Shown: positions 796 through 41,999 of the stretch, in pieces | Position numbering within the stretch: the first letter of the stretch is position 1 | How the letters are laid out: every line of letters starts with the position of its first letter | NCBI GenBank assembly: GCA_947649575.1 | Contig: CANSRZ010000004.1 | Span: 71,569 to 135,568 of the forward strand | Source of the DNA: an uncultured Clostridia bacterium | GTDB lineage: Bacteria > Bacillota > Clostridia > Christensenellales > UBA1242 | Length of the DNA stretch: 64,000 nt | Direction: 5' to 3' | The notes under the pieces: model-generated | The model's input: only the letters and a program-made list of their open reading frames with translations | Database searches by the model: none | What the model was told of the DNA's origin: nothing | Made by a program: the position numbers and the translations under genes

Positions 796-2897
796 TGGAG
801 GAAAAATTGAAACTTGTTATTATTGAGTCTCCTGCAAAGAGAGAATCACTTAAAAAATATCTTGGCCCTGATTATGAGGTCTATGCAACAAAAGGTCATA
901 TCCGCGACTTGCCTCAAAAATCTTTTGCCATTGATTTAAAAAATAATTTTCAACCTAAATATGAAATTTTGCCAGACAAGAAAGAACTTATTGCTGGGTT
1001 AAAGAAAAAGGCTGAGCAAGCTGATTATGTTTATATCGCAACCGACCCCGACCGTGAGGGTGAGGCTATTTCTTGGCACGTGGCTTATGTGCTTGGATAT
1101 CCAGCTGACAAAAAATGCAGAATTCAATTTAATGAAATCTCTAAAAAGGCTGTTACAAAGGCTCTTGAAGAGCCAAGGGCAATTGACCTTAATCTTGTAG
1201 ACGCTCAGCAGGCTCGAAGAGTTATGGATAGAATCGTGGGCTATAAGCTTTCTCCAATTCTTTGCAAAAAGATTGCGCCTAAACTTTCGGCAGGGCGTGT
1301 TCAATCAGTTGCACTCAAACTTGTTGTTGACCGTGAAAAAGAGATTGAAGAGTTTAAGCCAGAAGAATTTTGGACTGTGACTGCAACTCTTGAAAAGTCA
1401 GGGCAGGCATTTAAAGCAAGTCTTGACAAAAAAGATAAGAAAAAATTTGTCCCTAAAAACAAAGAAGAAGTTGACCAGGCACTTGAAAAAATCAAGCAAG
1501 GTCAGTTTGAAATTGTTGAACTTAAAAAAGCTAACACAAAATCTCATGCCCCAGCACCATTTACAACTTCGACTATGCAACAAGACGCGCTTAATAAACT
1601 TGGCATGAGTTTGAAGAGAACTTCTTCAGCTGCACAACAACTTTATGAAGGCGTTGAACTGAAAGGCGAGGGCAAGACCGCTCTTATCACTTACATCAGA
1701 ACTGACAGCGTGCGAATTTCAACTGACGCACAAAATGCTTGTCTTGATTATATCAAGCGTACTTATGGCGACAAGTTTGTGCCAGCAAAGCCTAACATTT
1801 ATCATACAAAAGAATCGGCTCAGGACGCGCACGAAGCTATCAGACCTATTTCTATGGATAGAAAGCCAGAGGATATTAAAGATAGCGTTGCGCCTGATAA
1901 TTATAGATTATATAAGCTTATTTATGAGCGTTTCCTTGCCAGTCAAATGGCAGAAGCCGAATATGCAAGCGTGACAGTCAACTTTGACGTCAATGGCTAT
2001 GGCTTTAAGGCGAGCGGAAAAACTATGCTTTTCCCTGGCTATACAACTGCATACAAGGAATATGTTGACGATGATAAAAATGAAGGCAAAGAAACTTTGG
2101 CAGGCAAACTTCCTGTTATGGAAGAGGGAGAAGTTATTCCTTGCAAAGAAATCTTGCCAGAGCAAAAATTTACAAAGCCTCCAACTCGTTACACTGAGGC
2201 AAGCCTTGTCAAGGCTATGGAAGAAAAGGGGATTGGTCGACCTGCAACTTATGCGGCAACTATCACTGTTTTAACAAGCAGAACATATTGCGAAAAAGAG
2301 GGGAAATATCTTGTTCCAACAAAGCTTGGAAGAAATGTTACTGATTATCTTGACCAATTTTTCTCATCAGTTATCAATGTTAAATTTACGGCTCACATGG
2401 AGCAACGTCTTGATGATATTGCTGAGGATAAAGATGAATGGCAGAAAGTTATTGAAGCGTTCTGGGACGGTTTTTCTGTGCTTCTTGGAAAAGCTGACGC
2501 CTCAGCTGTTACTATGAAAGCTCCGCCAGAGGAAACTGACATTGTTTGCGAAAAATGCGGAGGCAAAATGCTTATCCGTGAGGGGCGTTATGGCAAGTTT
2601 TTGGGTTGTGCAAATTTCCCAAAATGCAAGAACGTTCAGCCACTTCCTGAAAAGGCGGCTGAGCCTAAAAAATATGCTGGCATTTGCCCTGAATGTGGAG
2701 CAAAAATGACGGTGCGTCATTCAAAGCGTGGAAAGTTATATTATTCTTGCGAGCGTTATCCTGATTGCACTTGCATGACTTGGGATTTGCCTACTGGCAA
2801 AAAGTGTCCTAAATGCAAAAGCCCAATTGTGCAAAAAGGCAAAGTAATCAAGTGTAGCAACAAGGATTGCGATTATAAGGAAGAAAATCCAAGTTAA
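795..2897 (+). CDS. topA: DNA topoisomerase I
   Basis: TOPRIM N-terminus (LVIIESPAKRESLKKYLG, ATDPDREGEAISWH). Active-site region ITYIRTDS. Several C-terminal Cys4 zinc ribbons (CEKCGG..C..FPKC, CPECGAKM, CPKCKSP). Confidence 0.95.
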   Translation: MEEKLKLVIIESPAKRESLKKYLGPDYEVYATKGHIRDLPQKSFAIDLKNNFQPKYEILPDKKELIAGLKKKAEQADYVYIATDPDREGEAISWHVAYVLGYPADKKCRIQFNEISKKAVTKALEEPRAIDLNLVDAQQARRVMDRIVGYKLSPILCKKIAPKLSAGRVQSVALKLVVDREKEIEEFKPEEFWTVTATLEKSGQAFKASLDKKDKKKFVPKNKEEVDQALEKIKQGQFEIVELKKANTKSHAPAPFTTSTMQQDALNKLGMSLKRTSSAAQQLYEGVELKGEGKTALITYIRTDSVRISTDAQNACLDYIKRTYGDKFVPAKPNIYHTKESAQDAHEAIRPISMDRKPEDIKDSVAPDNYRLYKLIYERFLASQMAEAEYASVTVNFDVNGYGFKASGKTMLFPGYTTAYKEYVDDDKNEGKETLAGKLPVMEEGEVIPCKEILPEQKFTKPPTRYTEASLVKAMEEKGIGRPATYAATITVLTSRTYCEKEGKYLVPTKLGRNVTDYLDQFFSSVINVKFTAHMEQRLDDIAEDKDEWQKVIEAFWDGFSVLLGKADASAVTMKAPPEETDIVCEKCGGKMLIREGRYGKFLGCANFPKCKNVQPLPEKAAEPKKYAGICPECGAKMTVRHSKRGKLYYSCERYPDCTCMTWDLPTGKKCPKCKSPIVQKGKVIKCSNKDCDYKEENPS

Positions 2898-4156
2898 TGA
2901 AAATTAAAAGAACTGTGAACATTATAGGTTGTGGTTTCGCGGGCATTGAGTGTGCTTTGTTTTTGGCGAGCCATGGCGTTAATGTTCACATTTTTTGTGA
3001 TAAAGAGGAGTCATATAAATGCGATTGCATAACCTGCGAGTGTCTTGCTAAAAGTGAGAAAAACTCTAACTATGCAAGAGATATGCTTCGCGAAGAACTA
3101 AAAACTTTGAACAGCGCTCTTATTGACGAAGAAAGCAAACTATCTAAAAACGGTCTTGTTGAATGTGGCTGTGTGGCGTCAAGGCTTCTTGAATTTGGAA
3201 GAAATTTGATAAAAAATCATGAAAACATAAAGCTTTTTAAAATTAATGTAAAAGAGCTTGACACAGAAGAACTTAATGTTGTTGCAACAGGCACTCACAC
3301 AAGCAAAGAGTTGTTTGAATGGCTTAAAGATTGTTTTGGCTCAATGAGGCTGATTGATGATTGTTATGAAAACCCGATTGTGAACAGGCTTGATAAAGAT
3401 TTTCTTTTTAAGAAAGAGGGTGATGAAAGCGAAGATTTATATCTCCCGCTTGCTTATCATGAATATATTGGCTTTTGCAATGAGATTGTCAAAGCGCACA
3501 ATGAATATCTTGATTTAACAAAGTCAAACAAGCTGGATAGCGGTGAGTTTACTGTTGAGAAACTTATCGGGAAAGGCAAGGACGCTCTCAAAAATTATGC
3601 ATTTCGCGAATGTAAACTTGTTGGACTTGAAGAAAGGCCTTATGCAATAATTCGTTTCAAAAAGCATGAACTGGGATATGAAATTTGTGGTCTGGCAAGT
3701 GAACTGCCAACAAATTTTCAAGATAGATTTATATATTTCTTAACGCCTTGCTATAATTGCCAAATTGTGAGATATTCAAGAGTTGTAAAAAGTGGATATA
3801 TCAACTCGCCATACATCATCAATGAACATAGTCAAGCAGTTAAAAATCCAAGGCTTTTCTTTGCAGGGGCAATCACTGGCTTGGAGGGACATTTGGAAGC
3901 AATGGCAAGCGGACTTGTAACTGCTATGAACTTATTAACTCAAATAAAAGGCAAAAAATTTGTCAGTTTGCCAAAAAATACAATGATTAGCAGTTTAACT
4001 CGTAAAATTTTAACAAATAATGGTATAAAATTCTCGCCAATTTTGGCAAATTATGATATAATGGAAGAAAGCCTTGACCGAGAGGAGTTAAAATCTCGCT
4101 CAAAGCAAGAACTTACAAAATTTATGGAGGACTTTAATGGAAAATTCAATGTTTAG
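2897..4156 (+). CDS. TrmFO/Gid-like FAD-dependent tRNA (uracil-5)-methyltransferase homolog, divergent
   Basis: N-terminal dinucleotide-binding motif [15 protein letters not shown]-terminal [21 protein letters not shown] matches the TrmFO signature. Position between topA and hslV is as in Bacillus. The central region is poorly conserved. Confidence 0.6.
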
Positions 4157-6609: not shown

Positions 6610-7317
6610 ATGGAAAAAGATAACAAAGTTTTTGACACCTCACGTACAGAACTTCTTATTGGAAAAGATGGAATTGAGCAGTTGAAAAGTAAAAGTGTGA
6701 CGCTTGTTGGTGTTGGCGGTGTAGGTGGCTATGTGGCGACCATGCTTGCGCGTGCTGGGATTGGCAAAATTAAACTTGTGGATTTTGACAAGGTTAGTCC
6801 GTCCAATATCAATCGTCAGGTCGTTGCAAATGTTAACACAATTGGCAGAAGCAAGGTGGAAGTTTTGAGGGAAATGTTGCTTGAAATCAACCCTGAGCTT
6901 GATTGTGAGATTGTTGACGAGAGACTCACGTCAGAAAATGTCGAGAAAATTGTTACGGCTTGTGATATGTGCATAGATGCAATCGACAGCGTGAGTGATA
7001 AGGTTAGCCTAATCGTGCATTGTAAGCAAAACAATATTCCAATTATTTCAGCCATGGGAGCTGGCAATCGTGTGAGCATTCCTAGATTTTACTTGACCGA
7101 TATTTACAAAACTCATGATGACGGCCTTGCCAAGGTATTGAGAAAGAAGTTAAGAGAAAGTGGCATTGCCACACTCGATGTTGTAACTTGCGAGGAAAAA
7201 GCTTTGCAAGTTGAGGGGCGAACAATTGGCTCGATTAGTTATTATCCTGCGATGTGCGGGATAACGTTAGCGGCGGTTGTTATTAATAAATTTTTAGGTG
7301 GATTATCCACTTTTTAA
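6610..7317 (+). CDS. ThiF/HesA family protein, TcdA-like tRNA threonylcarbamoyladenosine dehydratase
   Basis: Rossmann motif LVGVGGVGGYVA. DFDKVSPSNINRQ motif typical of E1-like ThiF/MoeB/TcdA enzymes. Confidence 0.7.
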   Translation: MEKDNKVFDTSRTELLIGKDGIEQLKSKSVTLVGVGGVGGYVATMLARAGIGKIKLVDFDKVSPSNINRQVVANVNTIGRSKVEVLREMLLEINPELDCEIVDERLTSENVEKIVTACDMCIDAIDSVSDKVSLIVHCKQNNIPIISAMGAGNRVSIPRFYLTDIYKTHDDGLAKVLRKKLRESGIATLDVVTCEEKALQVEGRTIGSISYYPAMCGITLAAVVINKFLGGLSTF

Positions 7318-8322: not shown

Positions 8323-8445
8323 AAAAGCGACAGAAGAATGAAAATCACAGCTTTTGATTTGCTTTTTGTTATTGATAAACCATCACTTAAAAACAAAAAC
8401 AAGCAAAAGAATGCTTCTATCAAACTTTTTATAAAGGAAGTGACT

Positions 8446-9618
8446 ATGAGAAAAGTTTATCTTGATAATGCAGCAACAACTTATGTTTCTAGCGAAGTTT
8501 TGGCTGAAATGTTGCCTTGTTTTAACACAATTTATGGCAATTCAAGCTCGCTTCACAGCTTTGGGCGTGAGGCTTCAAACATTGTGGACAGAGCTAGGGA
8601 CAGAATAGCAAATGCTATTGGTGCTGCAAAATCCAATGAAATATATTTTACTTCTGGCGGAACAGAAGCTGATAACTGGGCAATTAAAGGCATTGCTCAT
8701 GCTTATGCAAATAAAGGCAAACACATCATCACAAGCGCGATTGAGCATCATGCGATTTTGGAAGCCTGCAAACAACTTGAAAAAGAGGGTTATGAAGTGA
8801 CTTATCTTCCTGTTGACAAATATGGTCTTGTAAGTTTGCCTGACCTTATTCATGAAATCAGAAAGGACACAACTCTTGTTTCAATTATGACTGTTAATAA
8901 CGAAGTTGGAACTATTCAAAATGTTAAAGCTATTGCAAAGATTTGTCATGAATATGGCGTAATTTTCCATACTGACGCTGTTCAGGGCATTGGCGCACTT
9001 AGAATCAATGTTAAGGATATGGATATCGACGCTATGAGCATTTCGGGGCATAAAATTTATGGACCAAAAGGCGTCGGCGCGTTGTATCTTAAAAACGGGA
9101 TCAGAATTGATCCACTTATCATTGGCGGCAATCAAGAACGTGCTAAACGTGGCGGAACTATTAACGTTCCTGCTGTTGCTGGCTTTGGAAAAGCTGTTGA
9201 AATTGCTGTTCGTGACATTGCAATCAATCAACAAAAACTTAAAGCAATTCGTGAGTACTTTATTGATAAGGTTACAGAGCGCATTCCATATATTCAAATC
9301 AACGGACACCCACAACAAAAAATTCAAGGCACTGTTCATATCTCTTTTGAGATGATTGAGGGAGAATCAATCCTTATGCTGCTTGACCTTGAAGGTATTG
9401 CTGTTTCTACTGCTTCGGCTTGCACTTCAAATTCACTTGAGCCATCTCATGTTTTGCGTGCTATGGGCATTCCTGATGAAATTGCACAGGGCTCAATTCG
9501 TTTCTCATTTGGCAAAAATATTTCTAAAGACGATGTTGACTATGTTGTTGATGTGCTTGAAAAAGCAGTTGAACAACTTAGATCGATTTCACCAATAACT
9601 AAAGCGGGGAGGAAATAA
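8446..9618 (+). CDS. nifS: cysteine desulfurase (NifS/IscS type)
   Basis: Start moved from the track's 8338 to the ATG at 8446 (MRKVYLDNAATT), preceded by AAGGAAG. PLP-lysine motif SGHKIYGPKG. Catalytic loop SACTSNS. Confidence 0.9.
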   Translation: MRKVYLDNAATTYVSSEVLAEMLPCFNTIYGNSSSLHSFGREASNIVDRARDRIANAIGAAKSNEIYFTSGGTEADNWAIKGIAHAYANKGKHIITSAIEHHAILEACKQLEKEGYEVTYLPVDKYGLVSLPDLIHEIRKDTTLVSIMTVNNEVGTIQNVKAIAKICHEYGVIFHTDAVQGIGALRINVKDMDIDAMSISGHKIYGPKGVGALYLKNGIRIDPLIIGGNQERAKRGGTINVPAVAGFGKAVEIAVRDIAINQQKLKAIREYFIDKVTERIPYIQINGHPQQKIQGTVHISFEMIEGESILMLLDLEGIAVSTASACTSNSLEPSHVLRAMGIPDEIAQGSIRFSFGKNISKDDVDYVVDVLEKAVEQLRSISPITKAGRK

Positions 9619-9620
9619 TT

Positions 9621-10025
9621 ATGTATAACAAAACTGTTTTAGAAAGATTTAAAAATCCTAAAAACGCTGGCGGACTTCGTGGCGCAAACGGCGTTGGCAA
9701 AGTTGGCAATGCTGCTTGTGGCGATATTATGAAAATGTATCTCTTAATCAACGAGGACGGCATAATCGAGGACGCAAAGTTCAAAACATTTGGTTGCTGC
9801 GCTGCGATTGCTTCAACTGATGTTGCTTGCGACCTTGTTAAAGGCAAAACAATTGATGAAGCACTTAAAGTGACAAACAAACAAGTGTTTGATATCTTAG
9901 GCGATTTGCCAGCACATAAAATTCACTGCTCAGTCTTGGCTGAAGAGTCAATCAGAGCAGCAGTTGAAGATTATTACAAGCGTGTGGAAAAAGAATCTAA
10001 AAAAATAGCTAAAGATAATCAATAA
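9621..10025 (+). CDS. iscU: Fe-S cluster assembly scaffold IscU/NifU N-terminal type
   Basis: Three conserved Cys contexts: AACGD, FGCCAAIAS and HCSVLA. Immediately downstream of nifS. Confidence 0.9.
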   Translation: MYNKTVLERFKNPKNAGGLRGANGVGKVGNAACGDIMKMYLLINEDGIIEDAKFKTFGCCAAIASTDVACDLVKGKTIDEALKVTNKQVFDILGDLPAHKIHCSVLAEESIRAAVEDYYKRVEKESKKIAKDNQ

Positions 10026-10261: not shown

Positions 10262-10924
10262 ATGTTAGATAGAAAGGCAACTAATCTTGAAGAAGCAAAT
10301 TTGGACGAACAATTTTTGAAAGTTTACAGCAATCTTGTTGCTGGAAATTGGTCATTCGATGAATTTTTTGACAAATATTACAACAAAAATTTTACTTATA
10401 AAAAAATTGCTGAAAAATTGCAAGGGAAAAGAGCTTTGAAACATATTTTTGTTAAAAAGATTTTGGATTATTATGACGCATTAGATTCAGTTTATATCAC
10501 GCAAGCGCAAGTGGATTTTATTGCAGATAAATCTATTAAACTTAAATTTAGCGATTTTAATACAGACACAAGAAGCACTCTTGCAATGTGTGATGATAAG
10601 GATTATATTGATATTAGTCATAATGTTTATAAAAAATTGGGATTGCTGCAAACTGGATTTGACCGCAGAGGCAGTTATTTGGCTTACGTTGTTGACGGGC
10701 AGCGCAAAAACGTTGACGATGATGTGCTTGATCAAGCTTTGGCATATGCAAAAAGCAAGAATATCTATCGTTGCAATTACACAATTTCTAAACTTGCAAA
10801 AGAAATTGTTTGTGGCAATATAGATTATTCAGAAGAGACTCAACAAGAAATGGCCGAAATGCAAAAAACTGTTTTAGAAATGGTACAAGAAAGTCAAGTA
10901 TCAGAAACACAACAACAAAATTAA
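10262..10924 (+). CDS. hypothetical protein (220 aa)
   Basis: Intact ORF, coupled to the preceding small ORF, followed by a terminator. No recognisable motif. Confidence 0.55.
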   Translation: MLDRKATNLEEANLDEQFLKVYSNLVAGNWSFDEFFDKYYNKNFTYKKIAEKLQGKRALKHIFVKKILDYYDALDSVYITQAQVDFIADKSIKLKFSDFNTDTRSTLAMCDDKDYIDISHNVYKKLGLLQTGFDRRGSYLAYVVDGQRKNVDDDVLDQALAYAKSKNIYRCNYTISKLAKEIVCGNIDYSEETQQEMAEMQKTVLEMVQESQVSETQQQN

Positions 10925-10955
10925 AAATATCACGGAATTTCCGTGATATTTTTTT
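10925..10955. terminator. bidirectional terminator between the 10262 gene and the convergent ytxH-like gene
   Basis: AAATATCACGG-AATT-TCCGTGATATTT followed by a T run. Confidence 0.8.
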
Positions 10956-11193
10956 ATTTTTTTGCGCTTGTTGCACTTTGCATTTGCTTTTTGATAGCAT
11001 TATTACCTTTCTTGATTGTTTTTGCTACCTTTTCAGCACCTTGCTCTGCTTTTTGTCCAATCTTTTCGGCTTCTTTCATGACGGTCTTCTCTCCATTATC
11101 CATCATTTTTTTAGCATCCTGGCTATGTTTGTATAGCATTGCGCCTGTGATAAGTCCTAAACCGAACCCTGCAAGCATAAAAATATCTTTCAT
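10954..11193 (-). CDS. YtxH-like general stress protein
   Basis: 79 aa. N-terminal hydrophobic segment FMLAGFGLGLITGAML, then a K/E/A-rich helical tail, as in the YtxH family. The antisense ORFs 10810..11136 and 10943..11218 are shadows. Confidence 0.6.
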   Translation of the reverse strand: MKDIFMLAGFGLGLITGAMLYKHSQDAKKMMDNGEKTVMKEAEKIGQKAEQGAEKVAKTIKKGNNAIKKQMQSATSAKK

Positions 11194-11346
11194 TTTGCCT
11201 CCTTTAACCTATCCTTAGGTTGTGCAGAATTTGTGATTTTATACATGTTGGTCTATTATTTTTGTTATTATAATCCATATTTCTTCGTAGCTCAGACCAT
11301 TCCCCGTGGAAACGAAAAAAAAGTTTTAATTTTCTTTCTCAAAAAG

Positions 11347-11374
11347 TTGACACGGGGGGGGGATTTGCTATACT
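11347..11374 (+). promoter_or_regulatory. consensus promoter with a G9 homopolymer in the spacer
   Basis: TTGACA (11347-52), 16-nt spacer containing GGGGGGGGG (11354-62), TATACT (11369-74). Lies upstream of the GLUG-repeat surface protein gene. Confidence 0.6.
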
Positions 11375-11437
11375 GATTTTGAAAATCAATATAGATTTTT
11401 AGTTATACTCAAATATTTAGTAAATACTGTAAAATAA

Positions 11438-11466
11438 TTGACTTTTGATATTAAAAATTATACAAT
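11438..11466 (+). promoter_or_regulatory. second candidate promoter upstream of the GLUG-repeat gene
   Basis: TTGACT (11438-43), 17-nt spacer, TACAAT (11461-66). Confidence 0.5.
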
Positions 11467-11564
11467 TTACTTATATTTTGAGTAAAAGTAAAAGCTTGCT
11501 AGATGACACCTTTGCTATGACTAAAAAGTGCATGCTTGCACATATTAACAAAGGAGAGTTTGTT

Positions 11565-14285
11565 ATGAAAGAAAAAAGCAAAAAACTCACGAAAATTGGG
11601 AAAATTTGGATGACGATTGTTTCTGCCGCATGTGTTTTAACTCTTGTTTTTGGCTTGACTTTTGGGCTTGGAAATTTTTTTGATAAGTTGCCAGAAAATG
11701 AGGAGGATTCAATTGGTGGGCCAACAAATTCTACATTTTGGGACGCAGATATCAGTCAGGTAGACACTGATTGGGAAGGCAATGGCACTCAAAATGACCC
11801 ATGGCTTATTTCTAGCGCAGAGGAACTTGCTGGTCTGGCTTATACAATTTCGCAAAACACAGCATCTGCAAACGATAAATACGCAGAAGGCGATGCAACT
11901 TATTTTTATAGCGGTAAATATTTTAAGTTAACAAATGATGTAGATTTGTCCAAATATTACTGGCGACCAATTGGAGTGCAGGGCAAGAATACGTCATTTG
12001 GGCAAAGTGCAGTAACTCCTTGTTATTTTTCTGGGATGTTTGACGGAGATTATCACATGATTACTGGCATGTTTGCAAGCAATAGTGATATAAGTGGAAG
12101 CGGTTATATGAATGGAGTAGGTTTGTTTGGCTCTGTGAGCGGATATTTTTTGCCGTCTGGCGATGTAATTTCAACTACAATAGAAAATATAAAACTTGAC
12201 AAATCTGAAAGTGCCAATGGACAGGGCTATTATACGGGAGGTATTATTGGATTTGCTTCAAGTCTTACAAATGTTCTAAATTGTAGCAGTAATGCTCAAG
12301 TTGGTGCAGGAGCTTGTGTAGGGGGTATTGTTGGTGGTGGTTCAGCAACTCTTACTGTTAAAAATTGTTATAATTCTGGAAATGTTACAAACTTGGGACC
12401 TAATGGTGGTGGAATTATTGGTATGGTAGGTGCTGCATGTACAATTGAAAATTGTTATAATACTGGTACAATAGATTCTTCAAATGGTGGAGGCGGAGGG
12501 TTGGTTGGTAATAGTGGTATTGTTTATATGAAAAATAGTTATAACTTTGGCACGTTGAGATACTATTCAACTGCAGGTGGTTTGGTTGGAACTTGCTCAA
12601 CTGGAAGTATTACAAATTCATATAATATTGGCTCTTTAGTTAATGGTTCTGCATCAACTGCAACTAACATTGGGCAATTGATTGGCTCAGTTGCGCTTTC
12701 AATAACTCTTTCAAAAGTGTATTATAAAAGCGGTACTGCAATTGGAAGCGGTACTGGCTCAGCTATTGCAAAAAGCGATTTGGCAACTGTTGCTAAGAAT
12801 AAAAGTTTTTATACCACTCAATCAAATTGGGACAGTTCATCTCCTTGGGATTTTGATAATGTTTGGGCAATTGATGGCTCTTTGAATGATGGCTATCCTG
12901 TGTTTATTTGGCAAGTGCCAATTACAAAATGGACTCAGGTTGCAGACATGTCTTATGAAACTTTAAATGAAGGAACTGAAGCAAACCCTTATATAATTGA
13001 CACGCCTGAAAAGTTGGCTGGGATTGCTAAATACGTAAACAGCGGTTATGAAATAAGTAAAAATACCACTTATGCTGGCAAATACTTTAAGCAAACTGCA
13101 AACATACGTTTGGGTCAATATGATTGGGAAGCTATTGGATATTTTGGAATGTATTCTTATTTTGCAGGCACTTATGACGGCAACGGATACAAAATCTCTG
13201 GGTTGCATGTAAACACAAGCAAGCTATTTCAAGGATTGTTTGGTGTTTTAGGTGGTGGTGGAATAATCAAAAATGTTACTTTAGAGAATTCTGAGATAAT
13301 TGCGACAGGCGGTTATACAGGTGCTATTGTTGGCTGGTGTGATAATCGTAATACAGTTAAGAACTGCAGAGTTATGTCGACTGTGTCAATCACAGGAGGA
13401 GGAAGTCATATAGGCGGAATTGTTGGGGCTTCAGGTCCGGGCGGTATACAAGAAATATCTAATTGTGAAAATTATGCTTCAATAAAACAAACGTCAAACG
13501 CTGCAATTTATGTTGGCGGAATATCTGGTATGGTGCAGGGGAGCGTCAATGTTATAAATTGTGTAAACTATGGCAATGTGACAAGTGCTGGTGATTACGT
13601 AGGCGGAATTTATGGTTATACACCTGGAGGTAAGGTTGAAAATTGTGTTAATCATGGCAATATAACTGGCAAAAATCATGTTGGTGGCATTTCTGGAGGT
13701 GATTCAGTCGATACAACTATCACAAATTGCATAAACAATGGAATAATAACGGGAATAGAATTCGTTGGCGGAATAGTTGGGAATATGGGGAGGTGTAAAA
13801 TTATTAACTGTATTTCTTCTGGTAATCTTATTGGCGACAAATATGTTGGAGGAATAGCGGGAACTCAGCCAATTGGAATACGCTCTGATCCAACTGAAAA
13901 TCCAAAGTCTACTGGAGAAATTAAAAATTGTTTAGCAACTGGTTTCATCAAATATAACGGCGATGACCTTGCATTTGCTGGAACTTTGGTTGGATATGTT
14001 CAAGATTCTGTTAGCGGTTTTATAGTTACAAATTGTGCTTTTTATGGTTCTAGTAACAAAGACCTTGGCATGTTTGCAAAAGCAACTGCCAGTGCTATGA
14101 CATTTGATTCTTGTTATAGTGATTGTCAACGGGTTAAACAATATTCAAGCGGTGATTTTGCTGGATTTGGTATTGTTGACGGATTAAACGACGGATATCC
14201 TGTTCAAAAGGAGTTATTCTGGGCGGCGGAGTTTGCGCCTGCTTTGGACGTGGCAAGTTATTTTGCTGGCTGGACAAAAATCTAA
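11565..14285 (+). CDS. large secreted/cell-surface protein with GLUG-motif repeats
   Basis: Start moved from the track's 11445 to the ATG at 11565 (MKEKSKKLTKIGKIW..), preceded by AAGGAG. N-terminal TM/signal segment. Many repeats of the GGIIG / VGGIVG / GGLVG type (GLUG motif) in two blocks. Confidence 0.7.
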   Translation: MKEKSKKLTKIGKIWMTIVSAACVLTLVFGLTFGLGNFFDKLPENEEDSIGGPTNSTFWDADISQVDTDWEGNGTQNDPWLISSAEELAGLAYTISQNTASANDKYAEGDATYFYSGKYFKLTNDVDLSKYYWRPIGVQGKNTSFGQSAVTPCYFSGMFDGDYHMITGMFASNSDISGSGYMNGVGLFGSVSGYFLPSGDVISTTIENIKLDKSESANGQGYYTGGIIGFASSLTNVLNCSSNAQVGAGACVGGIVGGGSATLTVKNCYNSGNVTNLGPNGGGIIGMVGAACTIENCYNTGTIDSSNGGGGGLVGNSGIVYMKNSYNFGTLRYYSTAGGLVGTCSTGSITNSYNIGSLVNGSASTATNIGQLIGSVALSITLSKVYYKSGTAIGSGTGSAIAKSDLATVAKNKSFYTTQSNWDSSSPWDFDNVWAIDGSLNDGYPVFIWQVPITKWTQVADMSYETLNEGTEANPYIIDTPEKLAGIAKYVNSGYEISKNTTYAGKYFKQTANIRLGQYDWEAIGYFGMYSYFAGTYDGNGYKISGLHVNTSKLFQGLFGVLGGGGIIKNVTLENSEIIATGGYTGAIVGWCDNRNTVKNCRVMSTVSITGGGSHIGGIVGASGPGGIQEISNCENYASIKQTSNAAIYVGGISGMVQGSVNVINCVNYGNVTSAGDYVGGIYGYTPGGKVENCVNHGNITGKNHVGGISGGDSVDTTITNCINNGIITGIEFVGGIVGNMGRCKIINCISSGNLIGDKYVGGIAGTQPIGIRSDPTENPKSTGEIKNCLATGFIKYNGDDLAFAGTLVGYVQDSVSGFIVTNCAFYGSSNKDLGMFAKATASAMTFDSCYSDCQRVKQYSSGDFAGFGIVDGLNDGYPVQKELFWAAEFAPALDVASYFAGWTKI

Positions 14286-14323
14286 TGTTTTGACAAGATT
14301 TGCAAGGAAATTATTTAAAAACC

Positions 14324-14352
14324 TTGCAAATCTTGTTTTTTTGTGTTATAAT
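14324..14352 (+). promoter_or_regulatory. promoter of the SRP RNA gene
   Basis: TTGCAA (14324-29), 17-nt spacer, TATAAT (14347-52). Confidence 0.7.
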
Positions 14353-14356
14353 CATA

Positions 14357-14631
14357 AAACCGAGCTAGACGGAGAGTTAGCGGTGCTCTGTAACCTACAA
14401 TCCGCTATAGTAGGGTTGACGATTTGCTTCGGTTTAAATTTTTTGAATATGTGTGATGTTATTTAATGTTGAAGTCAAGGTCTTATGCAATTAAAATTCA
14501 TGAACCAGGTCAGAGCTTGACGGCAGCATCCTTAAGTGAACACTTTAGTGTGCCATAAGGTAGCTTTGGTGGAGTTAAATAATGTCAAGGCAGTCAGGGA
14601 ATTTTTATCAACGCAAATCGCTCGGTTTTGA
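14357..14631 (+). ncRNA. ffs: signal recognition particle RNA, large Bacillus type (scRNA)
   Basis: AGCGGTGCTCTGTAACCTACAATCCGCTATAGTAGGG matches the Alu-domain of B. subtilis scRNA. TCATGAACCAGGTCAG..GACGGCAGCATCCTTAAGTGAA matches domain IV. The 5' end AAAACCGAGC pairs with the 3' end GCTCGGTTTT. Ends are approximate. Confidence 0.85.
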
Positions 14632-14772: not shown

Positions 14773-15219
14773 ATGTTTTTAAAAGAAGGCGAAAAAAGAT
14801 TTGTACTTATTAAAAGTGTTGACCAATTGTATGAAATTTTAAGGCCTGCATTTGTAGGATATGGGGTTGAGAAAAAAGATTTTATAGCAGATGAGACAGA
14901 TGTTGATGGCTGTTTCACTGATAATAGAGATTTTAAAAAGATACAAGAATGTGGGTGTCTTATTAAAAGACCACATGCTTATTGTGTTGTAGTAAATGAT
15001 TTTTGTGTAGTAAATATTTATGGTGACCAAGAAGATAAATTTGTTACTAGGGTCTTAAGAAAAGGGCTTGTTAAAACTGAAGGCAAAAAAGCGGTAAAAT
15101 TGTTGCGTGAATACAAAACAAGAGAAAGAGTTGACCCTGATATGCAATGTTATTATGCAATGGTTGGAATTACAGACCCACTTGAACTATATAAAGAAGA
15201 TACAACTGAAAATGAATAG
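14773..15219 (+). CDS. hypothetical protein (148 aa)
   Basis: Intact ORF with AAGGAGA RBS. No recognisable motif. Confidence 0.5.
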   Translation: MFLKEGEKRFVLIKSVDQLYEILRPAFVGYGVEKKDFIADETDVDGCFTDNRDFKKIQECGCLIKRPHAYCVVVNDFCVVNIYGDQEDKFVTRVLRKGLVKTEGKKAVKLLREYKTRERVDPDMQCYYAMVGITDPLELYKEDTTENE

Positions 15220-39635: not shown

Positions 39636-41999
39636 TTATTTTCTTGTTGAGGCAGGGCCGTCAATCATTCCAATGCCTACTTGGAAACTATAGTTTTTAG
39701 GTTGAGCACCAGAGTTTTGGTCATAAGTGTCTTTCACAATTTTAAAAGCAATTTCAATGTAGTCACATCCGTTTTCATCCAAAGCGAATGCAGCAGGATT
39801 TAATATACCATAAGAAACATACTTTGTTGTGTCGCCAGTGATGGGGTCAGTTTCAACTGCGCGGTCAACAAGCTGATAATAATCTTTGCGTTTATCATTT
39901 CCGTTGATAGGCAGGCGAGTGCCGATGCTTTGCCAGCCAATGTATCCGTCAGTGATTGAGTTTAACGCGCCATCAGCAATTTGTCTGTTCCATTCTCCAC
40001 ACTTGACACCAGTTTGATTGCCTTGCTCATCGCGCTCTTTAAGTCCAAACATCATCATTGTGTTATTCTTTGAACCATAGTCAAATGGTCCAGCTTTAAC
40101 CTCAATTGTGAACTGTGGATTATCAGCATCGCCCTCAGGATTTGGAATAACTTTCCAAGTATTTGTTGCCTTTGTATATTTGTGCAAATAAACATTTATT
40201 GTTAAACTTGCATCGTCTGGCACTGCCTGATTGCCATATTTGTCATATCCATAGCGGAAGAAGAGCATCATGTTAGAAAATTCATAGTCTTTGCCAAACA
40301 TAAAGCACATGCTTTGATATTCCATAACAGGAATGTTTTTAAATTCATTGCCACTGTCGGCCGAGATAAAGAAATCATTGCCATAATAATCGCATATTTC
40401 TGAGGCTACAAATTTATCGTCAATGTTAGGTCCGTTTTCGTCGCCAGAAGAATTGCCGATAGAAACTTGCTTTGTACAAATATCAATTATTGCCTCAACA
40501 TTTTCTTCATATTTGCGGTCAATTTCAATAGGCTTGTTAGTTTTTGTAGTTTCTATATCAGGGTCAAATTGTCCATCAATAACATTCCCATTTGAATCTT
40601 TATAATATACAACTTGATTGCCAATTTTGCGTACCATAACTTCTTTAGTTTGTGGTTTGCCTAAAGGGTCGTTTACAATAGGGTCATTTTCATCAATTTT
40701 GCCATCACCATTTGTGTCAATGGTTGAAATATTTGCAACATATTGAGTGTAGGTCTTTTCAGTTTGAGCAATTTCAAATGTGCTGTCGCTGTCAGTGCCA
40801 ATAATGTTTTCAAGAATCCAATTTTTCAGTCTGATTTGTTGACGTTCAGTAACACCAACATATGTACCAATTTGCTTAAAAATTTCTTTAATATTTTCAA
40901 GCGCAACTTCAGCAGAGGATTTATCAGCAGTTGCAGGGTATCCATCAACTTTAACTATAGGCATACCAGTAGTTGAGTCTATATTAACAGTAATATTATT
41001 AGGTCTTAAATCAAGGTTAATGCAATAGATTGCATATTCAAGTGCCTTGACATAGTCGGAATAAACACCATTGTTTTGCTTAGTGTATTCAGTGCCTAAA
41101 AAAGTTCTAGAATAAGCGTCAGTATTATTAGTTAAACTCCAATAGTAATTTATTAAGTTTGGGAGATTTCCTGTTTGTATATAATCACCATTAATATCAA
41201 TATTGTTAAGTATATTTTTTAATTTATTCTGGTCTTTATAGAAATAAATATTATTGTCATTATCATAATAATAACTTGTAGGGTATGCTGAACCCCCAAT
41301 AGTTATTTCGCTGTTATATAAAGGGTTGTCAGTATAAATTTTTTGAATTTGGGTCAAATATGAGTTATTATTGATAGTTTTTTCTATTGGGCTTAAAGGG
41401 AATTGATTGTCTGCGTATGTATAAACTGTTTGTAAGCCAAGTGTCCAGTTCCAATCGCTATTATGATTTGCTGTTATTTCAAAAAACTGTGTCTGCCCTT
41501 TTACTGTTTCATTGCCAGCATTATCCAATTCAATTTTTTTAAGTGTTATGTCGCTATATTCTTGCATTTGATATCTTATACTGTCGTACCAGCCTGTTTT
41601 AATTTCTGCGTCAGAACTAATAATTATTGGCTTTTCTGTTTTTTGACTTTTGACATATAAATTATTGTCATTGCTTTGGTCTGCAAGACCATATGTGCCT
41701 AGCAGTCCATTTAATAGCCACCAAGCATACTGTTCATAATAATTGCTGTTTTCTTCTCCACCAACATTGTCATCCCAATTATAGCTTGTAGGGCGATATA
41801 AAACCTTTGTTCCATAAAGGGGAACTGACATTGACGATTGGCGCTGTTCAAGATATTCTTCATAACTTATCTGACCATTTTCATAAGCTTCTTTAAGGCT
41901 ATCGGCATAATCAGAGTCATTGCCAGCACAGCCAACAAAAATAAAGCCTATCATTAGACATAAAATATAAGCAAATATTCTTGACAATTTCTTTTTCAT
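39636..41999 (-). CDS. large lipoprotein (787 aa), function unknown
   Basis: Signal peptide with lipobox FIFVGC. Contains one DTNGDGKIDENDP calcium-loop (dockerin/EF-hand-like) motif. Confidence 0.65.
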   Translation of the reverse strand: MKKKLSRIFAYILCLMIGFIFVGCAGNDSDYADSLKEAYENGQISYEEYLEQRQSSMSVPLYGTKVLYRPTSYNWDDNVGGEENSNYYEQYAWWLLNGLLGTYGLADQSNDNNLYVKSQKTEKPIIISSDAEIKTGWYDSIRYQMQEYSDITLKKIELDNAGNETVKGQTQFFEITANHNSDWNWTLGLQTVYTYADNQFPLSPIEKTINNNSYLTQIQKIYTDNPLYNSEITIGGSAYPTSYYYDNDNNIYFYKDQNKLKNILNNIDINGDYIQTGNLPNLINYYWSLTNNTDAYSRTFLGTEYTKQNNGVYSDYVKALEYAIYCINLDLRPNNITVNIDSTTGMPIVKVDGYPATADKSSAEVALENIKEIFKQIGTYVGVTERQQIRLKNWILENIIGTDSDSTFEIAQTEKTYTQYVANISTIDTNGDGKIDENDPIVNDPLGKPQTKEVMVRKIGNQVVYYKDSNGNVIDGQFDPDIETTKTNKPIEIDRKYEENVEAIIDICTKQVSIGNSSGDENGPNIDDKFVASEICDYYGNDFFISADSGNEFKNIPVMEYQSMCFMFGKDYEFSNMMLFFRYGYDKYGNQAVPDDASLTINVYLHKYTKATNTWKVIPNPEGDADNPQFTIEVKAGPFDYGSKNNTMMMFGLKERDEQGNQTGVKCGEWNRQIADGALNSITDGYIGWQSIGTRLPINGNDKRKDYYQLVDRAVETDPITGDTTKYVSYGILNPAAFALDENGCDYIEIAFKIVKDTYDQNSGAQPKNYSFQVGIGMIDGPASTRK

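Follow-up and report, generated by a model that had tools for sequence, protein, structure and literature searches.

The window, by which we mean the whole 64-kb stretch of DNA analyzed here, carries the locus within a core part of the chromosome. The gene order was topA, nifS (8338-9618), nifU (9621-10025), a 220-aa open reading frame (ORF; 10262-10924), a 79-aa gene on the minus strand (10954-11193), an intergenic region, the gene for a 906-aa protein on the plus strand (11565-14285), a hairpin, an SRP RNA gene, ung, and ileS. Relatives of the ileS product with 77-83% identity belong to MAGs named "Clostridia bacterium" or "Clostridiales bacterium", which makes the organism an uncultured member of the Clostridia. 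The intergenic region between the 79-aa gene and the 906-aa gene is 371 nt long and holds a predicted promoter, P1, with a run of nine G in its spacer. After the stop codon of the 906-aa gene, a plus-strand hairpin with a perfect 15-bp stem and a 14-nt loop (14293-14336) forms the probable terminator and the probable right edge of the cassette described below. Directly 3' of this hairpin is a bacterial large SRP RNA gene (14360-14625; Rfam RF01854, 156.7 bits), which was the only family found by the Rfam scan of the window. No tRNA genes were found in the window, and the 371-nt intergenic region matched no Rfam family even at E-values up to 5.

Several ORFs of the window had no significant family, namely the 220-aa ORF and the 79-aa gene, a 148-aa ORF (14773-15219), and a 787-aa ORF on the minus strand (39636-41999). 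The 220-, 79-, and 148-aa ORFs were scanned against Pfam and NCBIfam, and the 787-aa ORF against NCBIfam only. A search of 5.8 billion proteins returned just seven relatives of the 79-aa protein. Contig L011, one of those used for comparison below, carries a 4-nt deletion at about position 10511 within the 220-aa ORF.

The gene at 11565-14285 encodes a membrane-anchored protein with two GLUG-type beta-helix modules. The 906-aa ORF proposed in the first-pass annotation was confirmed, with a ribosome-binding site (GGAGAG) on the plus strand at 11553-11558, 6 nt ahead of the ATG. In the public entry, P0001 (922 aa), translation is taken to begin at 11517, with an ATG that no ribosome-binding site precedes. 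The start at 11565 appears the more likely true one, because GGAGAG lies ahead of it and because it agrees with the N-termini encoded by the other alleles.

The 906-aa protein matched no Pfam or NCBIfam family significantly, and a sequence search of the PDB was also empty. An AlphaFold2 model computed with 33 sequences had a mean pLDDT of 86.9; in it, a disordered linker joins an N-terminal TM helix (residues 10-34) to two beta-solenoid modules in tandem. The best Foldseek match in the PDB was 3n6z (E 3.3e-6, target TM 0.56), the GLUG beta-helix of a putative IgA1 protease of Bacteroides ovatus. The next structural matches were the beta-helix domains of streptococcal IgA1 proteases, that of S. 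pneumoniae among them, followed by tailspike- or lyase-type beta-helices. The product had been described as a signal-anchored GLUG-repeat surface protein; the anchor helix and the GLUG-like beta-helices bear this out, but the Pfam GLUG family PF07581 was matched below its gathering threshold (E = 0.033; 15.0 bits vs a cut-off of 20.5; 6 stretches). PF07581 was annotated on most of the 120 homologues listed, with E-values down to 1e-167; the protein combines a modeled GLUG-type right-handed beta-helix fold with homology to PF07581 carriers. No protease domain, LPXTG motif, or lipobox was found in it. Surface exposure of the protein is predicted, and the TM helix, the beta-helix modules, and alleles that are 30-70% identical agree with a product that is exposed at the surface or under fluctuating selection in another way.

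Direct reading of the window gave the P1 region as AAAAAG-TTGACA-C-GGGGGGGGG-ATTTGC-TATACT. On the plus strand, a perfect consensus -35 hexamer TTGACA (11347-11352) is followed by a single C (11353), the G9 homopolymer (11354-11362), and ATTTGC (11363-11368), which is the 3' part of the spacer. The -10 hexamer TATACT occupies 11369-11374, and a TG at 11366-11367, one base ahead of it, makes it an extended -10 element (TGC plus TATACT, 11366-11374). These coordinates and the 16-nt spacer were as claimed in the first-pass annotation. In a promoter consensus scan of the window, P1 matched the consensus at 11 of 12 positions with the TG present. The hypermutable element makes up nine of the 16 spacer positions, and P1 is probably a sigma-A-type promoter, with its predicted transcription start near 11381. 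The upstream part of the module (11300-11346, plus strand) is rich in A/T tracts (TTCCCCGTG...A8 at 11315-11322...GTTTTAA) and was approximately 100% conserved across all contigs of the window locus. It is possibly a UP element or a factor-binding site.

We further examined how unusual such a tract is in this DNA. The window is AT-rich, as had been noted earlier, with a G+C content of 35.8%, and the G9 tract was its sole G or C run of at least 6; the next longest was 5. Approximately 0.03 G or C runs of at least 9 are expected in 64 kb under an iid or first-order Markov composition. The promoter scan found only 19 sites scoring at least 11/12 on both strands of the window, and the chance that a random run would fall wholly within a spacer of one of these sites was approximately 0.002. 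On these grounds, the presence of G9 in a near-consensus spacer is more than chance. The tract also belongs to the repeats of hypermutable length (about 7-8 or more) that are over-represented for composition, and at the sequence level it separates the -35 from the -10 in the promoter of the gene that it would regulate.

To compare tract length across assemblies, contigs were collected from ENA and Logan assemblies. An exact-protein look-up with the 79-aa neighbor protein led to 10 metagenome contigs, its 97%-identical variant led to one more, and the 86%-identical GLUG allele P0002 led to one Logan contig. The P1 module was recovered 13 times, from the window and 11 other contigs. The tract was G9 in 10 of the 13 observations (the window, L007, L008, L009, L010, L012, L015, L016, L023, and the left end of L024) and G10 in the other three (L013, L017, and the right end of L024). 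At the window locus, G10 was found on two different gene alleles, A in L013 and B' in L017. Contigs L013 and L015 have a common left-flank haplotype, yet differ in both tract length and allele, and contig L011 breaks off 2 nt into the tract. Tract length is thus polymorphic between assemblies, with the G10 calls coming from low-coverage contigs or a contig end. A fixed length across strains, which the first-pass annotation had named as evidence against a switch, was not what the assemblies contained. A spacer range of 15-17 nt had also been proposed; spacers of 16 and 17 nt were seen among the 13 copies, but 15 nt or a clearly "off" length never was. The contigs of this locus were fetched through an identical 79-aa neighbor and are close relatives on their left side. 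That different alleles keep the tract is, for this reason, no independent sign of selection.

The sequences on the two sides of the tract behaved differently. To its left, contigs were 98-100% identical to the window, whereas to its right distinct alleles were found. Allele A (the reference) was present in the window, L008, L013, and L016, and allele A', whose gene product has 86% aa identity to A, in L007. Alleles B (L009, L010, and L023) and B' (L017) depart from A at 11371, as does allele D, and allele C (L012 and L015) departs at 11387. When window 11371-14307 was compared with L007, L009, L010, L012, L015, L017, and L023, four or more allele classes (A/A', B/B', C, and one D-like) were seen in one chromosomal slot. 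The encoded N-termini were all signal-anchor-like and strongly different from one another, and the replacement alleles at this locus were 30-70% identical between strains. Fragments of allele B shared about 70% identity with P0005 and 57-64% with P0004. The identical left flanks, the distinct right alleles, and the haplotype common to L013 (A) and L015 (C) indicate that the gene is, as judged from these contigs, a recombining hypervariable cassette with its 5' boundary at the P1 -10 region.

The promoter elements were retained across this boundary. The -35 hexamer and the block C-Gn-ATTTGC were unchanged in 13/13 copies, and the P1 -10 was either TATACT or TACAAT, always with TGC ahead of it and at the same spacing. 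Both -10 variants (TAnAnT) retain the critical A2 and T6 as well as TGn. The P1 hexamers were kept although the allele surroundings diverge from 11371 or 11387.

The tract-free second promoter candidate reported earlier was recovered at 11438-11466 on the plus strand. This promoter, P2, consists of TTGACT, 17 nt, and TACAAT, and scored 10/12 in the promoter scan. In alleles A, A', B, B', and D, P2 (TTGACT or TTGACA, 17 nt, TACAAT) was retained 63-65 nt 3' of the P1 -10, and no allele whose sequence covers this region lacked it. An imperfect 36-nt inverted repeat on the plus strand brackets P2 (arms 11397-11432 and 11458-11493), and within it are two palindromes resembling TTACTCA-N5-TGAGTAA (11405-11423 and 11467-11485), the best matches to that motif in the window. 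These palindromes are candidate operator sites, and the repeat is probably the operator of a regulator. In contig L021 from a related species, the GLUG gene has a single promoter, with a perfect copy of the palindrome 3' of it (about 1190-1208, minus strand); neither L021 nor L022, also of related species, carries a G tract. Since L021 has a single promoter and a perfect palindrome and lacks the tract, P1 and its tract seem to have been added in front of an older promoter-operator unit. The leader from P1 to the gene is 184 nt, and the scan of the window found no plus-strand terminator between P1 and the gene. A structured 5' leader was considered and rejected, with an MFE z-score of only -1.85.

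Copies of the module were also found away from the window locus. The Logan contig L024 (SRR21474242) carries the GLUG paralogue P0003, which is 38% identical to the window protein. The N-terminus of P0003 resembles that of P0004, a protein encoded on the window's own 154,929-nt contig, outside the window. Because the downstream neighbor of P0003 is a divergent PFOR gene and not the SRP RNA gene, P0003 sits at a different locus. The start of L024 (1-31) reads C-TTGACAC-G9-ATTTGC-TACAAT and continues into P2. Its end (7279-7299) reads ...GAGATTTGC-TTGACAC-G10-ATTT, and the 60 nt 5' of this right-end copy are homologous to window 11300-11346. L024 represents either two module copies in the genome or one copy assembled with two tract lengths, and both readings favor a contingency locus. 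Two Logan contigs, L007 and L024, have their first bases at the -35, which had been considered as a sign of tract heterogeneity; this was rejected, since a multi-copy module explains these starts better. A variable-gap pattern scan of JGI metagenomes gave only two unrelated chance matches, which indicates that the collection lacks the organism, and pattern scans of viral contigs gave none.

A G tract of another kind was found in the same protein family. A scan of a genome collection identified GLUG paralogues 35-36% identical to the window protein on contigs L001 and L002 of the MAG CAOJZM01 ("uncultured Christensenella sp."). In both contigs (3834-3960 in each), a G9 tract lies in the coding region directly after the hydrophobic segment of the signal peptide. 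With G9, the ORF stops at 41 aa, and it is this OFF frame that both assembled contigs carry; with G10, one frame runs from the signal peptide into the GLUG domains. At G10, the L001 ORF exceeds 723 aa and runs to the end of the locus, and that of L002 meets one further frameshift about 370 nt into the ORF, so that G10 restores its frame incompletely. The arrangement has the appearance of a classical translational poly-G design. The L001 and L002 genes have a TATACT box 6 nt ahead of the ATG and no Shine-Dalgarno sequence, and may be leaderless. The gene calls for the homologues P0013, P0030, and P0034 lack a signal peptide, and the first residue of each lies at or immediately ahead of a Gly-Gly-Gly. 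Such N-termini would be the expected product of an out-of-frame coding poly-G and are suggestive in these few cases. Enrichment of Gly-Gly-Gly after the signal peptide was not significant (20 of the 120 listed homologues, against a background of 11% per 90-aa stretch).

Of the readings we considered, the best supported, to which we give moderate confidence, is a slipped-strand contingency locus that would tune P1 of the GLUG surface-protein gene. Slipped-strand mispairing during replication would add or remove a G in the P1 spacer. The spacing would then change from 16 nt at G9 to the optimal 17 nt at G10, and presumably beyond, and P1 strength would follow. P1 would read through the 184-nt leader into the gene for the two-module GLUG beta-helix protein. 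Variation in expression set by the tract would be heritable but reversible, on top of the allele exchange that diversifies the protein itself. On this reading, P1 would fire, tract length would alter its output, and switching would occur within clonal populations, of which the break of L011 inside the tract and the two tract lengths on L024 are the only hints. The earlier proposal of a candidate phase-variation switch is supported by the G9/G10 polymorphism, the kept hexamers, the recurrence of the module, and the coding-region G9 of CAOJZM01.

The effect of the tract is probably a graded modulation rather than a clean ON/OFF. Extended -10 promoters depend less on the -35 element and on spacing. 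A graded effect is likely here because P2 is conserved and because the extended -10 of P1 lowers its dependence on spacing. A change from 16 to 17 nt may have a modest effect, and P2 could supply most of the expression and buffer a change at P1.

The alternative that survives best, although we think it unlikely, is that the tract is mutable but without consequence: P2 would transcribe the gene, P1 would be inactive or minor, and the tract would be carried along in a duplicated module. P2 is indeed a good match with the optimal 17-nt spacer, its position and sequence are kept in A, A', B, B', and D, and the GLUG gene of a related species manages with a single P2-like promoter followed by the palindrome. 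However, a G9 or G10 run in a genome of 36% G+C would be expected to decay unless maintained, and this one lies exactly in the spacer of an 11/12 promoter with TGn. Three or more module copies retain the -35, the TG, and the -10 of P1, these elements persist from one allele to another, and the changes from TATACT to TACAAT spare the key positions. The use of a coding-region G tract elsewhere in the same family also argues against a tract without consequence.

We regard as decidedly improbable that the G tract is a fixed cis element of selected length, such as a protein-binding site or a rigid G/C-rich spacer that determines P1 strength, with the G10 calls being errors and no switching taking place. 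Ten of the 13 observations are G9, as a fixed element would have it, and the G10 contigs L013 and L017 have k-mer coverages of 2.3 and 1.6, with the third G10 at a contig end, so that any single G10 call may be a homopolymer sequencing error. All three deviations nevertheless fall at the tract. In approximately 9 kb of aligned left flank across 11 contigs, the sole 1-nt indels were the two at the G tract, the A8 run (11315-11322) 31 nt upstream of it was invariant in the aligned contigs, and the remaining contigs, with equally low coverage, had no homopolymer indels. The reading frames of L001 and L002, broken at G9 and restored at G10, are sensible only for a tract that changes length, and G tracts of 9 or more are intrinsically prone to slippage.

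A recombinational switch (an inverton or shufflon), to which the G tract would be incidental, has very little probability left. The exchange of downstream alleles with breakpoints at or just after the -10, the two Logan contigs beginning at the -35, and the imperfect inverted repeat around P2 could all be taken as its marks. Against this, P1 and P2 had the same orientation to both flanks in all contigs (13/13 copies in one orientation), no inverted repeat flanks P1, and the rest of the 64-kb window contains no alternative cassette sequence; the multi-copy module accounts for contigs that begin at the -35. The arms of the P2 repeat are separated by only 25 nt, which is too short for the known invertases. 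An inverton or shufflon was rejected for want of an inverted repeat flanking P1, of inverted copies, and of alternative cassettes in the window. Finally, poly-G artefacts occur in two-color Illumina data, but the probability that the G run is such a sequencing or assembly artefact is negligible, as 11 other independent assemblies, made in different projects and with different assemblers, have the tract at interior contig positions and with identical flanks, and these copies together with the tract census have effectively refuted the idea already.

Returning to the contingency-locus reading, the poly-G module may tentatively be seen as a common 5' unit of a multi-locus GLUG family, although we hold this wider view to be doubtful. 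Such a unit would set expression locus by locus, giving combinations of the vlp type, and would also serve as a recombination anchor for cassette exchange, a role suggested by the allele breakpoints at or just after the -10. The sister lineage may reach the same end through a poly-G within the coding sequence, in the part for the signal peptide. If this wider view is true, it would be the first SSR "phasome" in commensal Clostridia, where only inversion switches are known. A slippage promoter switch with a coding counterpart in another MAG would widen contingency-locus biology to include a lineage seen so far only in metagenomes, with a large hypervariable family of beta-helix surface proteins as its target. 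It would also point to strong fluctuating selection on these GLUG proteins, with phage, host immunity, and adhesion as examples of its source. Annotators would then do well to read GLUG genes that look "truncated", and contigs that break at such tracts, as biology and not error.

In the literature searched, we found no report joining GLUG with phase variation, and no equivalent of SSR phase variation in Firmicutes from metagenomes. The runs of nine or ten G would fit a stochastic switch of a known type for which this search found no earlier report in the GLUG family or in this lineage. Invertible promoters have been described for cwpV, cmrRST, and pdcB of Clostridioides difficile and for gut Bacteroidales, and DNA inversion makes up nearly all the phase variation described to date in Clostridia and gut commensals (PMC11868660). 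Phase variation in Clostridioides is described there through invertible promoters only, and SSR cases in new organisms are regarded as notable expansions (PMC11868660). The system proposed here would share with these promoters the phase-variable control of surface or signaling genes. Unlike them, it would not use site-specific inversion between inverted repeats, as neither such repeats nor inverted variants are present. The coding G9 of L001 and L002, in frame only at G10, resembles the intragenic poly-G/C genes of Campylobacter jejuni, Haemophilus, and Neisseria. Unlike tracts of the C. jejuni type, the window copy is promoter-located and would act on transcription, and the coding design occurs in another MAG.

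In Mycoplasma hyorhinis, the vlp genes are paralogous surface lipoprotein genes, each with a poly-A tract in its promoter, and are expressed in combinations; the promoter tracts of this family were reportedly described by Rosengarten and Wise in 1991. The present locus likewise belongs to a variable surface-protein family with a conserved homopolymer-bearing promoter region. It differs from vlp in that the tract is poly-G, the protein is unrelated and not a lipoprotein (it has no lipobox), and just two to three module copies have been seen so far. In fim2 and fim3 of Bordetella pertussis, a poly-C separates the site of the activator BvgA from the -10. Here too, the gene is predicted to encode a surface structure and its promoter contains a homopolymer that would change the spacing of promoter elements, but the tract lies between canonical -35 and -10 hexamers.

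The parallel in Neisseria concerns homopolymeric tracts between the -10 and -35, which control porA, fetA, and opc (PMC2791445). The first-pass annotation had cited promoter-spacer homopolymers as an established mechanism, and this was borne out for porA and opc and also for fetA (PMC2791445). The outcome in Neisseria is described as graded levels and not as pure ON/OFF (PMC2791445). For porA (poly-G), opc, and fetA (poly-C) of Neisseria meningitidis and N. gonorrhoeae, tract length determines how far the -35 is from the -10 and, through this spacing, how much surface protein is made, and we infer the same here; the tract lengths are also comparable (9-10). Unlike in Neisseria, the host is a Gram-positive-type Clostridia member, and the predicted sigma-A promoter has an extended -10 with a second, tract-free promoter downstream. 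Moreover, the module is repeated at several loci, and its target is a TM-anchored beta-helix GLUG protein instead of an outer-membrane porin or receptor.
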